DNA of 64,000 nt from Octopus vulgaris (lineage: Eukaryota): contig OX597833.1 of NCBI GenBank assembly GCA_951406725.2, positions 44,640,001 to 44,704,000 on the forward strand, in the 5' to 3' direction. Positions 46,401-62,878 of the stretch are shown here, in pieces. The notes under the pieces were generated by a model. It saw nothing but the letters and a program-made list of their open reading frames with translations. It was not told the DNA's origin and ran no database searches. The first letter of the stretch is position 1. Every line of letters starts with the position of its first letter. The position numbers and the translations under genes were made by a program.

Positions 46401-49400
46401 CTGAGTTCGAATTCCTTCGAGGACGACTTTGCCTTTCATGCTTTCGAGGTCGATTAAATAAGTACCAGTTAGGCACTGGGGTCGATATAATCGATTTAAT
46501 CCGTTTGTCTGTCCTTCTTTGTCCCTTCTGTGTTTAGCCCCTTGTGGGTAGTAAAGAAATAGGTATCCTGACTTACTTCCGGTGTTCGAACCGTGGGTCC
46601 TTTTCTTTTTGGGGTGTTATTCACTGACCCCGTAGTGCGTCACTTCTTAACCAACATTTGTATCGTTCACTTTGCCGGCAAGCCTTAACCCAGAAACTTG
46701 ACTTTAAAAGTTTCACGTGTTTGCTTAACACAATCGGTTCTCACATGCACTTACACAATCTCCATTCCTTCCGCTATTGAGTGTGGCATGTTGCAGAAAA
46801 TGCTAGAGATGTTCACTCAATGCATTCTTACAATTAACTAATGCGGTGAGGGTAACGTAGCAAAGAGTCGACTGATGCACCATCTTTGTTCAGCACAAAC
46901 AAGGCTTTGAACTAACATAATGACACTTGCAAACGAAAGGCTTGGTGCTTTTTGCGTATGTAAATTTATTTCTCTATTCACACAGTGTTACGGAATCCAG
47001 GCTACTTTTTCGTGCCCCACCCTATAAAAGACAAGAAGTTTGTTCACATACAAACGCCATAGATCAAAGGTTGACCTTATCAAGAATGACTTCGAAACGA
47101 ATAACAATAGCAATTCTATTGGTTTTTGTTTGCCTGACATAAAACAGGTTCTAGTTCATATCTCACAGTTAAAGAATTAGCAGTAGAAAGATTTAACACG
47201 GCAAATAATTGTATAAAAATAGTATCACATGCGGTCGTATCGTATAAGAGACACGGTCGCACGTGGTCATATTCTTAATGAGTTATTTACTGACCATATA
47301 TACATGCAGCGGCAATGGAACACATAAGTGGAATGACAACAAGTCTTCTGTTGGTAGATAAATATTATTTATTTTACATATTTTACAATCATGTTGGTTG
47401 GAAGTTTGTAAGTGTTAGCATGTTTTTGTGTCTGTGTGTTCGTGAGGCATAAAGGGTACTGACCAGAGAAATAACAATGGAATTTGGTTCACAGTTCATG
47501 TTGTTGGTATCAGCCTAGCAACAGGTAGTAGCAGATGGCTTAAGGTAGTTCTTAGAAGAACTAGAATTCAAGACAGTTAATTGATTTACCGTTTATGAGG
47601 TACACGGAGGGTAAGAGTTCCATATCAAGATGTTGCGTCTCGTAGTTGAGATTAATTGAGTCACTTGTTGTGTTTATCTTTCTCTTGATGTGAATATACT
47701 TCCAGATATATTAACTGTAGCCGTTTTTCCCGTGGTGATATTTTCACCTAACCGCTATAGTTGAATCTGTAGTTGTCTTGTGTACAAATTAAATCTTAGT
47801 AGATAGAGACGATGTTGGCGATGAGTCGTGTCTGTCGCTTGGTTTTTGCTGCGTCTTCATTATATATTCTGCTTGGTTATTTTTCTCTAGTTATAGATAT
47901 CCTGTAACCGTTCTTTTCGTGGTGATATTTTCACACTAACAGTGTGAGAGGAATCTGTAACATCTTGTATTAATGGTGGTCGCCTGCCTTTCGAACTGGA
48001 ACATGGTCGAGTATGCTCTGTGTGGTCAGAGGTTCGCCCTGAGAAGAACCAAAGACGAACTCTGTGGTCAGAGGTTAGTCCTGAAAAGAACTAAAAACCT
48101 AAGACGAGCTCTGTGGTCAGAGGTTTAGCTCTGAAAAGAACTAAAAACCTAAGACGAATATTCGTCTGAGAACCCTTCTTTTATAAGGTTTATTGGGCTC
48201 AAAACGAACTTCAGAAATGGAAAGCTGTGAGTGGCTGCTTGGAACAATGGCGCGAAAATAAGCGGAGGCAAATCGCGTCACGTGACAACCAGCGGTGCGA
48301 ACGTAGTAGAGACCACGTTCAGTCAATCGAATTAGTGTTTACAACAATAATAAACTAGCCGAAGATGTTTGAAATCTCGAACGAGATTATTCTTAATACT
48401 CTTCTCAAACAGTGAAGATAGCAATGAGTGTAACGATATCGCTACAATTGAAAGAATAAATAAATAAATAAAAACCTAACTTTTTCTATAAAAGTAATCT
48501 CGTCCATAATTCAATTAAATGTCAATTCAAGATCTAGTACTAAACATAAAGTTTTGGAATTTTTAAGTCGTTTCGTATATCTCAGCTCCTACATTTATAC
48601 GTTTTGTCTTGATTTCCGACTACTTCACTATTTTAAATTAATAAAAGGAATTGAAAATTGTATTTTATTTTCTGTATGATATTTCATTTCCCTTGTTTAA
48701 TTACAGTTCCTCCGAAAACTACCACTGCTAAACCTAGTAAGTTCATTTTTCTCTTATCTTTATTTCATTCTACAGAATTTCAATATTTTCTGTCCACTTG
48801 TAGGGAACATCTATCATATTTTAATAAATTCTCATGGATTTAAACTACTTCGTAAAGAGATGCCTTTCCCAGTCAGTTCGCTTTTCAAGCATATGTTCCC
48901 GAGTCCAAACTGACAGCACGTCGCCTTAGGAGAGTGTCTTCAACTATAGCCCCAGACAGGCCAATACTTTTTCAGCAAATATATTTCGCTTAGTTCCGCT
49001 GGACTAACATGTCAGGCGTCTAGAGATAGATTCTCCTTATATATATATTTTTATTTATTTTTTTTTTAAATTTATTTGTTTATATATGTGTATGTATGCA
49101 TGTATGTATGTATGTATGTATGTATGTATGTATGTATGTATGTATGTATCAATCGCGGGGACATAGAAATAATCGGACTGAATACCCGATCGCGCGGTTA
49201 AACCATTAGGAGTGAAGGACTTCTAGCCTTTGTTAGGGCATCCTTCTAGGAGAAGGTAACTCAGGTAACTGGGATAACTCCGATATAAAACCTGCGGCTC
49301 AGTGGCTACCGATGATGTTGACTTGTTCTTCTTTTCGGATTATGGCTGCTGTTGCTTAGTGAGTGGGATTGACTCAGTGCACAGCCTTTCCTCACTTTAA

Positions 49401-61400: not shown

Positions 61401-62878
61401 TTTTCCATTTTTGGTAACACATTGCACTCGGCTATCTATAGCAATTTTTTATACATACAAACATATGGCACGTAAAAATTTTTGAACCTGGCGGTTGCCA
61501 GTTCCGTGTGGCTGATCCTCGTGCCGGTGGCACGTAAAAGCACCCACTACACTCGCGGAGTAGTTGGTGCTAGGAAGGGCATCCGACTGTAGAAACTCTG
61601 CCAGATCAGATTGGAGCCTGGTACAGCCATCTGGCTCGCCACTCCTCAGTCAAACCGTCCAACCCATGCCAGCTTGGAAAATGGACGTTAAACGATGATG
61701 ATGATGATGAATGATACGTATATATATATATATATATATATATATATATAATTCCCAGTCAATTCGCTTTTCAACCACATGTTTTCGAGTTGAATCTCGC
61801 TGCACGGCACCTTGAGAGAATGTCTTCAACTGTAGCCCCGGATATAGCAACGCTGAATGATAGGGAAATTTCTTGGCTCCCTATAACTCAGCGGTTCAGC
61901 AAAAGACATCAAGGGAGTAGGTACCAGATTGAAAACATACGTACTGTGATTGCCCTGTTTCAGGTGCAAAGGCACGTTTTCAGGAGAAAACAATCTGGAG
62001 AATGTTCAGTTGTGCAGATTCCGTTAACCCATTCAAATCCTTTGCATAACTGGACATTTCCCAGGTTGTTTTTCTTCTGAAATATAAAGGTTTTATAAAA
62101 CGTTCCGCATTGTCAAAAGCTTTCTATTTTCTTTCTTTTTAACCTGCTTTTAATATGTTTTCTATTTTTTATTCAAGCTACTACAAAACCGCCACTTACT
62201 GTAGGTTCACGTAAGTTTTTCTATCTTCATTTCATTCAACAGTATTCTGATCCTTGTTACTTTTATACGGAAAGCAGTGGATGCTTGAATTGATTCAACA
62301 TTCCGTTAAATTTTTTCCTGTATTTAGTTGTATTCCTTTATGTTGAGAGTTCAGATCCCACTAGGTTTTATGGGTCACTCATCCATCTGGACGTTAATAA
62401 AATAAGTAGTCAACTACCAATGTCGATCAAATCAATTGCCCCCTTTCCTTTAAATGTGGGATTTTGTGTCTCTTAAAAATCAATATCATGTAGACGAAGT
62501 GAGGTAGCAAAGTCAGTCACTAACCAACTATGTAACATTACGTTCTGAGTTGCATATTATACGTGACACCGTCTCATATCCATTGAGTTCGATAAAATAA
62601 AGTATCACTTAAGTACTGGGGTCGATATAATCAACCCATACTCTCCCTGAAAATATGCAGAATTGTATCCGATATCATAAATCAGCATTATCATTATTGC
62701 TGTTTGCTTTCTATTGTTTATTTTTTTAATTAAAACAGATATATTGTATGGTGATGGTTTTGCTGCTAGCACATCGGTCGTGATTATTTCAATTAGCTCC
62801 GTTTCTAGTATTTTTTTCCTGTGTCGGGCTTTCGTGTTGCGACAAATTTTTCAGGAATGCATTATTCTTGTAACATAG
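34353..62878 (+). CDS. Complete spliced gene model: signal peptide - Ig - Ig - microexon-encoded mucin-like stalk - hydrophobic C-terminus (12 exons, 350 aa)
   Basis: Exons 34353-34410, 38361-38681, 43177-43518, 48707-48736, 49789-49824, 52097-52114, 53896-53913, 56444-56461, 58244-58261, 60047-60067, 62178-62210, 62739-62878. All junctions are GT-AG and phase 1, and the exons sum to 1053 nt, an open frame ending in TAG. The first and last exons are less certain. Confidence 0.72.
35793..36430 (-). mobile_element. Mariner transposase remnant, copy 2
   Basis: Duplicate of 7640-8276. Confidence 0.72.
38007..38088 (+). pseudogene. U6 snRNA pseudogene, copy 2
   Basis: Duplicate of 9853-9934. Confidence 0.78.
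38361..38681 (+). CDS. Ig domain exon 1, copy 2
   Basis: 321 nt, AG/GT, phase 1-1, DEGPYRC motif. Confidence 0.85.
39885..41266 (-). mobile_element. Chapaev3-like transposase remnant, copy 2
   Basis: Duplicate of 11730-13110; a longer open frame at 40153-40752 includes [19 protein letters not shown]. Confidence 0.6.
41943..42650 (+). mobile_element. hAT transposase remnant, copy 2
   Basis: Duplicate of 13785-14490. Confidence 0.78.
43177..43518 (+). CDS. Ig domain exon 2, copy 2
   Basis: 342 nt, AG/GT, phase 1-1, FRC...FNW...VKC. Confidence 0.85.
44862..45417 (+). mobile_element. Non-autonomous mariner with TIRs and TA TSD, copy 2
   Basis: Duplicate of 16704-17259; [13 protein letters not shown] is in frame here. 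Confidence 0.9.
48707..48736 (+). CDS. Stalk microexon 1 (30 nt, [10 protein letters not shown]), copy 2
   Basis: AG/GTAAGT, phase 1-1. Confidence 0.8.
49789..49824 (+). CDS. Stalk microexon 2 (36 nt, [12 protein letters not shown]), copy 2
   Basis: AG/GTAAGT, phase 1-1. Confidence 0.8.
52097..52114 (+). CDS. Stalk microexon 3 (18 nt, TTTAKP), copy 2
   Basis: AG|CTACCACTGCTAAACCGA|GTGAGT. Confidence 0.75.
53896..53913 (+). CDS. Stalk microexon 4 (18 nt, TTTEKP), copy 2
   Basis: AG|CTACAACGGAAAAACCGA|GTAAGT. Confidence 0.75.
56444..56461 (+). CDS. Stalk microexon 5 (18 nt, TTTAKP), copy 2
   Basis: AG|CTACCACTGCTAAACCGA|GTGAGT. Confidence 0.75.
58244..58261 (+). CDS. Stalk microexon 6 (18 nt, TTTEKP)
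   Basis: AG|CTACAACGGAAAAACCGA|GTAAGT. Confidence 0.75.
60047..60067 (+). CDS. Stalk microexon 7 (21 nt, TTTTAKP)
   Basis: AG|CTACTACCACTGCTAAACCGA|GTAAGT; a frame-preserving +3 nt variant. Confidence 0.78.
60833..61190 (-). mobile_element. Apparently full-length tRNA-derived SINE inserted only in the last repeat unit
   Basis: Minus-strand head tggagacgcaatggtccagtggttagggcagcgg...gcggtttcgattccc (A/B boxes). Flanked by ccatct(a/t)ata at 60822-60831 and 61191-61200. Sister units show the empty site. Confidence 0.88.
62178..62210 (+). CDS. Stalk microexon 8 (33 nt, [11 protein letters not shown])
   Basis: ttttttattcaAG|CTACTACAAAACCGCCACTTACTGTAGGTTCAC|GTAAGT; phase 1-1. Confidence 0.75.
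62739..62878 (+). CDS. Candidate terminal exon with a hydrophobic membrane-anchor segment
   Basis: T-rich tract + aaacAG acceptor. In phase 1 it reads [46 protein letters not shown]. Confidence 0.6.

Follow-up and report, generated by a model that had tools for sequence, protein, structure and literature searches.

The window analysed here is a stretch of 64,000 nucleotides (nt) of the Octopus vulgaris genome (GenBank assembly GCA_951406725.2, contig OX597833.1, positions 44,640,001 to 44,704,000 of the forward strand), and all positions below are counted from its first letter. It holds a plus-strand gene whose first coding exon is followed by two symmetric exons, one of 321 and one of 342 nt, and then by eight microexons. 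The microexons are predicted to encode the stalk of an uncharacterised octopod protein with two immunoglobulin (Ig)-like domains. From the sequence relations within this array, it is highly probable that the protein repeat grows by tandem duplication of cassettes composed of an intron and a microexon. A first-pass annotation of the stretch had proposed the same, and the proposal is supported by flank alignment and a flank tree, by microhomologies at the junctions, by the splicing of unit 1, and by stalk differences among paralogues and in O. bimaculoides.

The gene, its Ig domains and its splicing

Microexons were located by a motif scan and a splice-site parse of the plus strand, and units 2 to 7 were identified by this parse together with flank alignment. 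The exons are given below, where P0001 and P0002 are the gene models of O. vulgaris and of the O. bimaculoides orthologue, and X9 is a sequencing run.

34278..34410, plus strand: first coding exon, N-terminal leader, ending in phase 1; translation matches the N-termini of P0001 and P0002
38361..38681, plus strand: Ig-like domain 1 exon, 321 nt, phase 1-1; 100% match to P0001, loose end of run X9, fold model and Foldseek
43177..43518, plus strand: Ig-like domain 2 exon, 342 nt, phase 1-1; covered end to end by X9 contigs, which stop at the donor
48707..48736, plus strand: microexon unit 1, 30 nt, 10 amino acids (aa); spliced, with the X9 loose end behind 43518 matching it in 29 of 30 letters
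49789..49824, plus strand: microexon unit 2, 36 nt, 12 aa; nearest to the inferred ancestral length
52097..52114, plus strand: microexon unit 3, 18 nt, A type (xTTAKP); present in P0001
53896..53913, plus strand: microexon unit 4, 18 nt, E type (xTTEKP)
56444..56461, plus strand: microexon unit 5, 18 nt, identical to unit 3
58244..58261, plus strand: microexon unit 6, 18 nt, identical to unit 4
60047..60067, plus strand: microexon unit 7, 21 nt (xTTTAKP)
62178..62210, plus strand: microexon unit 8, 33 nt, 11 aa; old relative with flank similarity on the donor side only; a variant occurs in copy 5 of P0001

All eight microexons are bounded by AG and GT, lie in phase 1-1 and have lengths divisible by three (18-36 nt), and each unit retains a strong GTRAGT donor and a pyrimidine-rich acceptor. 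Chained by the splice-site parse, the 11 exons in the window give 329 codons free of stops, with every intron of the GT-AG type. The microexons account for 192 of the 988 coding nt within the window (19%), and the 3' end of the gene lies outside it; the window also lacks the exon found after the stalk in P0001. Half of the 64 aa encoded by the microexons are Thr or Ser, joined by 10 Pro and 9 Lys, and judging by this composition the stalk is probably O-glycosylated.

The first large exon is 100% identical to P0001 and 81% identical to P0002. A phmmer search with P0002 matched 32 proteins, and the ten further ones that were looked up comprised nine octopod proteins and one fish protein, the latter being the second weakest match in the search. 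The single-sequence fold reached a predicted local distance difference test (pLDDT) score of 33, and a model of P0002 built on a 25-row alignment was used instead (pLDDT 78.8). It contains two beta-sandwich domains and a disordered tail. Foldseek with this model returned antigen-binding fragment (Fab), single-chain variable fragment (scFv), LILR and B7-type chains at E values of about 1e-6, and all but one of the top rows listed were Ig-domain entries. Atlas neighbours of the octopus protein also include Ig families. A beta-sandwich with a conserved Cys pair and one domain per phase-1 exon, as in the Ig superfamily, is found on the P0002 model. Pfam gave nothing above chance for the two Ig exons or the protein itself, with weak Ig matches in a few of the 25 homologues, and phmmer against the PDB with Ig exon 1 returned only E values of at least 0.29. 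Several homologues have a hydrophobic tail or transmembrane stretch at their end; P0001 and P0002 are without a clear one.

According to the homologue search, the family has expanded and evolves fast in octopods. Homologues P0004, P0008, P0013, P0018 and P0036 lie on the same 73.6-Mb record as P0001. Repeated Ig pairs occur in several homologue models, and the octopod family seems often to have tandem gene copies and fused models.

Splicing was followed in four of 24 listed sequencing runs, available as contigs and none of them on record as RNA, which were aligned to 43000-43720, a region that takes in Ig exon 2 with its flanking sequence. The X9 contigs span the second Ig exon, end at 43518 and behave as spliced: the loose letters in front of the exon match the end of Ig exon 1 (28/30), those behind it match unit 1 (29/30), and the contig then runs 65 letters past unit 1. 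A second X9 contig is identical to the window over 43174-43252. The end of Ig exon 1, Ig exon 2 and unit 1 are joined in one spliced order in this run. Signals, frame and gene models suggest that units 2-8 are spliced as well.

Several observations count against this reading of the gene. Splicing is seen directly for unit 1 only and in one run of the four; the X1 contig continues into the intron, that of X2 ends at the donor, and in X3 the exon is not covered, although such holes in X2 and X3 are no proof of anything. The record of X9 is itself not that of RNA, and its contig differs from the window in four of 296 letters, so that it stems from a paralogue or allele and not exactly from the window's copy. 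Further, P0001 omits unit 8 in copy 4, the copy that matches the window, and shortens Ig exon 2 in four of its five copies, a shortening that X9 does not support. Apart from this, contigs of X1 and X2 join intronic 42687-42716, with a GTGAGT donor at 42717, to the start of Ig exon 2, which marks 42687-42716 as a cryptic upstream exon at low depth.

The microexons may also be often-skipped cassette exons, with the range of stalk lengths produced by alternative splicing, a reading that is compatible with the duplication history and that we regard as possible but rather doubtful. As all microexons are symmetric and 18-36 nt long, any subset of them keeps the frame; schistosome micro-exon genes (MEGs) are described in such terms in the cited text (PMC4350168), and the two isoforms of O. 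bimaculoides differ at the end of the stalk. However, no skipping was observed in the four runs aligned over Ig exon 2 and its flanks, where the X9 contig is unbranched through its 65 letters past unit 1, and the strong donors and pyrimidine-rich acceptors of all units speak against it as well.

Duplications in the microexon array

Flank identities were determined by pairwise alignment of the 250 nt upstream of each microexon. The flank of unit 1 is 82.7-83.1% identical to those of units 2-7, the flank of unit 2 is 90.8-91.6% identical to those of units 3-7, and that of unit 7 is 96.8-97.2% identical to those of units 3-6. Units 3 and 4 share 98.8%, and the pairs 3 and 5 as well as 4 and 6 share 100%. 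A tree of the flanks of units 1-7, with exons and unit 8 left out, gave (U1,U2,(((U3,U5),(U4,U6)),U7)) with support of 88-92. The homologous intron context noted earlier for microexons 1-7 is thereby recovered on formal alignment at 83% to 100% identity, as is its grading, with units 1 and 2 diverged, unit 7 moderately so, and units 3/5 and 4/6 identical.

The upstream flank of unit 8 lies at background (46.7-49.5%), and its donor-side match is confined to 39 nt at 79% (blastn, E 0.003), in line with the weak downstream match previously remarked on. The score of this match was reached by none of 2000 shuffles and by 1.55% of 2000 random window positions, which include the flanks of the units themselves. 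No further copies of the core flank, dead or hidden, were found in the window.

Homology extends over about 345 nt and a separate 240-nt block in unit 1, over about 640 nt in unit 2, and to the kilobase scale in units 3-7 only. The description of the repeat as kilobase cassettes of intron and microexon holds for units 3-7, but units 1 and 2 share only hundreds of nt. Downstream of units 1 and 2, 48820-49056 and 50920-51158 form a second homology block at 88% identity, and the duplication of units 1 and 2 therefore extended past the exon flanks before insertions split the block.

Units 3-7 lie in five head-to-tail monomers (M3-M7) that are 0-4.9% diverged, each with its exon and homologous intron:

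51731..53529, plus strand: monomer M3 (unit 3), 1.8 kb, starting with the 7-nt microhomology ACGCTGA; self-alignment
53530..54678, plus strand: monomer M4 (unit 4), truncated within a (TA)n tract by the 4.34-kb duplication; self-alignment and junction
56078..57877, plus strand: monomer M5 (unit 5); no substitution to M3 over 1806 columns
57878..59681, plus strand: monomer M6 (unit 6); differs from M3 by 23 substitutions over 1806 columns, of which 4 lie in the 18-nt exon
59682..61856, plus strand: monomer M7 (unit 7), about 4.8% diverged, ending at a second ACGCTGA; 360-nt insertion at about 60834-61197
52546-52816, 54349-54619, 56895-57164, 58697-58966 and 60467-60816: palindromic element in the (TA)n tract of the monomers

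With starts at 51731, 53530, 56078, 57878 and 59682, the monomers recur at 1799, 1800 and 1804 nt, which agrees with the monomer size of about 1.8 kb estimated at first, and the estimate of about 2 kb of DNA per 6 aa comes to about 1.8-2.2 kb. M7 differs from M3, M5 and M6 at 84-87 positions in about 1786 columns. ACGCTGA opens the first monomer, recurs at the two kinds of internal junction and marks the end of M7, beyond which the sequence diverges. This pattern appears to be the mark of a microhomology-mediated tandem duplication that was repeated once in register.

Two inverted structures accompany the monomers. The palindromic element, about 270-350 nt long and presumably akin to a miniature inverted-repeat transposable element (MITE), lies in the (TA)n tract of each 1.8-kb monomer, and the 4.34-kb duplication broke about 60 nt past it. 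At 51227-51860 and 55570-56207, a (TA)n tract of 240 nt is flanked by inverted arms of about 255 nt. The left end of each monomer is formed by 130 nt of the arm, the source of the ACGCTGA microhomology.

A larger repeat spans units 3-6:

50373..54678, plus strand: first 4.34-kb copy, with units 3 and 4; self-alignment
54679..54715, plus strand: new junction of 37 nt, in which the (TA)n tract is joined to short re-copied pieces of 50373-50411 with three 2-nt microhomologies
54716..59025, plus strand: second 4.34-kb copy, with units 5 and 6; 0 substitutions to the first over 3749 columns outside microsatellites

Its period of 4343 nt is the sum of 1358 nt of non-monomer sequence, 1799 nt of a monomer, 1149 nt of the next one and 37 nt of junction. 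The repeat of about 4.35 kb seen in the first-pass annotation therefore exists, but it is not a higher-order repeat of monomers, as it includes non-monomer DNA and its length is not an in-register multiple of the monomer. It stems from an event of its own, out of register with the 1.8-kb monomers. Templated junctions of this kind arise by serial template switching or by polymerase-theta joining, and (TA)n tracts are fragile.

Units 1-5 of the array also lie in a much larger, probably false duplication, which escaped the first-pass annotation together with the gap that divides it:

29947-30046: gap of 100 N
1870..29946, plus strand: near-identical copy of 30047-58124, ending at the gap; same gene with units 1-5

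The two 28-kb copies are 99.56% identical, so that units 1-5 occur twice in the window and the left contig ends inside the array. The 25,270 columns outside microsatellites contain 14 substitutions and 29 indel events, a pattern dominated by indels. The 28-kb duplication is probably an unmerged contig overlap and hence a false duplication; a very recent true segmental duplication is possible because the gene sits in a young cluster. Two ordinary haplotypes were also considered and judged unlikely, since the copies differ by 0.055% and the heterozygosity of O. vulgaris is given as 1.22% (10.1101/2023.05.16.540928). The model P0001 takes both copies into one fused protein of 1202 aa.

Given such an assembly, the identical 4.34-kb copies with units 5 and 6 might themselves be an assembly expansion, as foreseen when the repeat was first described, and the true gene would then have six microexons. 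The absence of substitutions in 3749 columns fits an expansion, as do the 28-kb copy across the gap and the contig that ends inside the array, which make the assembly visibly unreliable. An expansion, however, reuses existing sequence and would not create a 37-nt junction with templated re-copies. The left contig carries an identical junction near 26507-26543. In each contig, the two 4.34-kb copies are also told apart by an A7/A8 difference. The older monomers, 1.3-4.9% diverged, would moreover be left untouched by an expansion. Because the new templated junction lies on both sides of the N gap, the 4.34-kb repeat is probably not an assembly expansion, and we consider that explanation very unlikely. 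What tells against a true duplication is that both contigs could share the same long reads.

Exon lengths, stalk variation and neighbouring sequence

The exons of units 3, 4 and 7 can each be derived from unit 2 by one deletion and 2-3 substitutions. The A-type and 21-nt exons correspond to the 3' portion of unit 2. Over its first 14 nt, the E-type exon of unit 4 departs from unit 2 at one position and from unit 3 at four. Together with the stalk of O. bimaculoides, which parses as three units of 12 aa, these derivations point to an ancestral exon of 36 nt. The short exons look like cut-down pieces of this ancestor, made by deletion or by conversion patching. For the E type, a deletion is awkward: M3 and M6 differ by 1%, so a 36-nt exon would have had to persist until very recently. 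Conversion from another unit would fit its origin as well.

The changes in exon length are in frame in all four cases, as had been stated at the outset, compared with none of eight internal flank indels (Fisher P 0.002). This contrast is compatible with the selection for reading frame that had been proposed, but the periodicity of the exon alone favours in-frame deletion: 11 of the 13 possible deletions between microhomologies of at least 3 nt in the 36-nt exon are multiples of three (3/5 at 4 nt or more). Four in-frame events thus have a probability near one half from mutation bias alone. Purifying selection on the reading frame is nonetheless to be expected.

Selection of another kind, positive or diversifying, might act on the length or sequence of the stalk, for example by tuning the distance of an immune-type Ig head from the surface. 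Four of the 23 differences between M3 and M6 fall inside the 18-nt exon (binomial P 7.5e-5), the make-up of the stalk differs among paralogues, and in octopods the family has expanded and evolves rapidly. Yet the four differences disappear if the 5' half of unit 2 is taken as the partner of the E-type exon, with one difference in 14 nt, and the net gain is just 12-30 aa of low-complexity linker. Such selection on the stalk seems unlikely, and positive selection behind the four differences between the exons of units 3 and 4 was rejected, as the alignment to unit 2 turns them into one structural event.

P0001 is a fused prediction of five copies with stalks of 33, 36, 40, 53 and 46 aa and differing unit make-up, counts that are only indicative because the model is fused, skips unit 8 and cuts Ig exon 2 short. 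Its copies 3 and 4 correspond to the two contigs of the window and are hence not independent, and copies 2 and 3 differ by 1 aa in the first Ig domain.

For the two 4.34-kb copies, 0 differences in 3749 columns set an upper 95% bound of about 0.08%, around 15 times below the heterozygosity of the species. The event would thus be younger than most allele pairs and is probably still segregating, unless it was swept or homogenised by conversion. Polymorphism in copy number among individuals, which the first-pass annotation had supposed, is likely because the last duplication is so young.

Two open frames accompany the gene. Between the Ig exons, 41930-42650 holds a decayed open frame that, by eye, we take to resemble transposase-derived sequence (GTF2IRD2/hAT-type). 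Just upstream of the gene, 1-5350 and 30047-33550 carry a long, open-looking coding sequence on the minus strand, within which the right contig starts and which we assume, again by eye, to resemble a non-long-terminal-repeat (non-LTR) retrotransposon (reverse transcriptase/endonuclease).

Proposed history of the stalk and related systems

The proposed history concerns the stalk of a two-Ig-domain gene in a cluster of recent paralogues, each piece of which would be a symmetric phase-1 microexon. A tandem duplication with both ends in introns would add a piece with working splice signals, in frame because the microexons are symmetric and in phase 1. In a first step, old duplications of a 36-nt exon and its flanks would have given units 8, 1 and 2. 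The second step, whose sequence relations and junctions are visible in the window, would be a 1.8-kb tandem duplication through the 7-nt microhomology, repeated in register, probably by unequal crossing-over, to give three monomers. In a third step, in-frame microhomology deletion or conversion from another unit may have led to the 21-nt, the 18-nt A and the 18-nt E exons. The fourth and very recent step, likewise visible in its sequence relations and junction, would have started from a break in the (TA)n tract, and repair by serial template switches would have duplicated 4.34 kb and re-added the A and E pair (12 aa). The process could be largely neutral, with exon symmetry and the 3-nt periodicity keeping the frame and purifying selection removing frameshifts.

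The closest likeness is to the SmPoMuc mucins of Schistosoma mansoni, in which a 27-bp mucin-repeat exon lies in a genomic repeat of about 1 kb with up to 20 copies (PMC2576457). As described there, the introns are more than 94% identical, microsatellites lie between the units, the paralogue clusters vary in repeat number and the repeat hinders assembly. Like SmPoMuc, the octopus locus has a mucin-repeat exon within a tandem genomic repeat in a paralogue cluster. SmPoMuc has up to 20 units of nearly one length, whereas the octopus has five to seven units of varying exon length and graded age, and its stalk follows Ig domains. Polymorphism and transcript diversity have been demonstrated for SmPoMuc and are putative at the octopus locus; the likeness is drawn with no claim of sequence homology.

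Two further systems carry exons in tandem genomic repeats. In human LPA, the kringle IV-2 (KIV-2) unit of 5.5 kb with two exons occurs in 1 to more than 40 copies with proven polymorphism (PMC4378929). As far as this source describes it, the protein likewise grows by whole units of intron and exon, with near-identical copies beside diverged single-copy relatives, but the KIV-2 unit has two exons and encodes a folded domain, unlike the octopus microexon unit. NBPF genes with Olduvai sequences have two-exon monomers of about 1.6 kb in triplets of 4.8 kb (PMC9584774), nearly the same sizes as the exon-bearing monomer and the larger repeat in the octopus. The NBPF triplet is described as a true in-register higher-order repeat in many copies, whereas the octopus repeat of 4.34 kb is a single out-of-register duplication. 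The head-to-tail units and symmetric in-frame exons of SmPoMuc, LPA KIV-2 and NBPF are all found at the octopus locus. By its structure, the locus appears to work like SmPoMuc and to belong to this class of exon-bearing tandem repeats, and it is a candidate for a true variable-number tandem repeat (VNTR).

Schistosome MEGs consist mostly of small symmetric exons, with exon duplication reported in MEG-3 and a MEG-like portion in VAL-6 (PMC4350168), and the octopus gene resembles MEGs and VAL-6 in having tiny symmetric exons one after another. It is not a MEG, however, since the bulk of the coding region of MEGs, as characterised there, is micro-exonic, compared with 192 of 988 coding nt in the window. 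The Xenopus integumentary mucins FIM-B.1 and FIM-C.1 reportedly have a layout of one exon per repeat. The cited text gives them as Thr-rich and polymorphic through alternative splicing (PMC7177656); the octopus stalk is Thr-rich as well, but the FIMs are gel mucins that are secreted and have different domains. A paper on this octopus family or locus was not found in a search that lay mostly outside subscription journals and supplements, and a mention in a table of a genome paper is possible.

A broader possibility is a segregating 'accordion' in an undescribed octopod Ig gene cluster, in which paralogues and alleles would differ in the number and type of stalk exons of 15-36 nt. Complementary halves recut from the 36-nt ancestor, conversion swaps between units and cassette splicing would then yield selected variation in how long the stalk of a recognition protein is. 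This seems quite unlikely; if true, it would be the first host-side counterpart of SmPoMuc in a cephalopod.

As the design is already known, growth of the stalk by duplicated cassettes leaves the view of what is possible unchanged. The locus draws attention to an unstudied octopod Ig family, along with a probable false duplication and a fused gene model. It is an unusually legible case, since one short array holds duplications at 83% to 100% identity and two intact breakpoints, a 7-nt microhomology and a templated (TA)n junction, with exons that appear traceable to a 36-nt ancestor kept in a sister species. As such, it may serve as a test bed for the birth and recutting of microexons and for the question of whether in-frame lengths stem from mutation bias or from selection.

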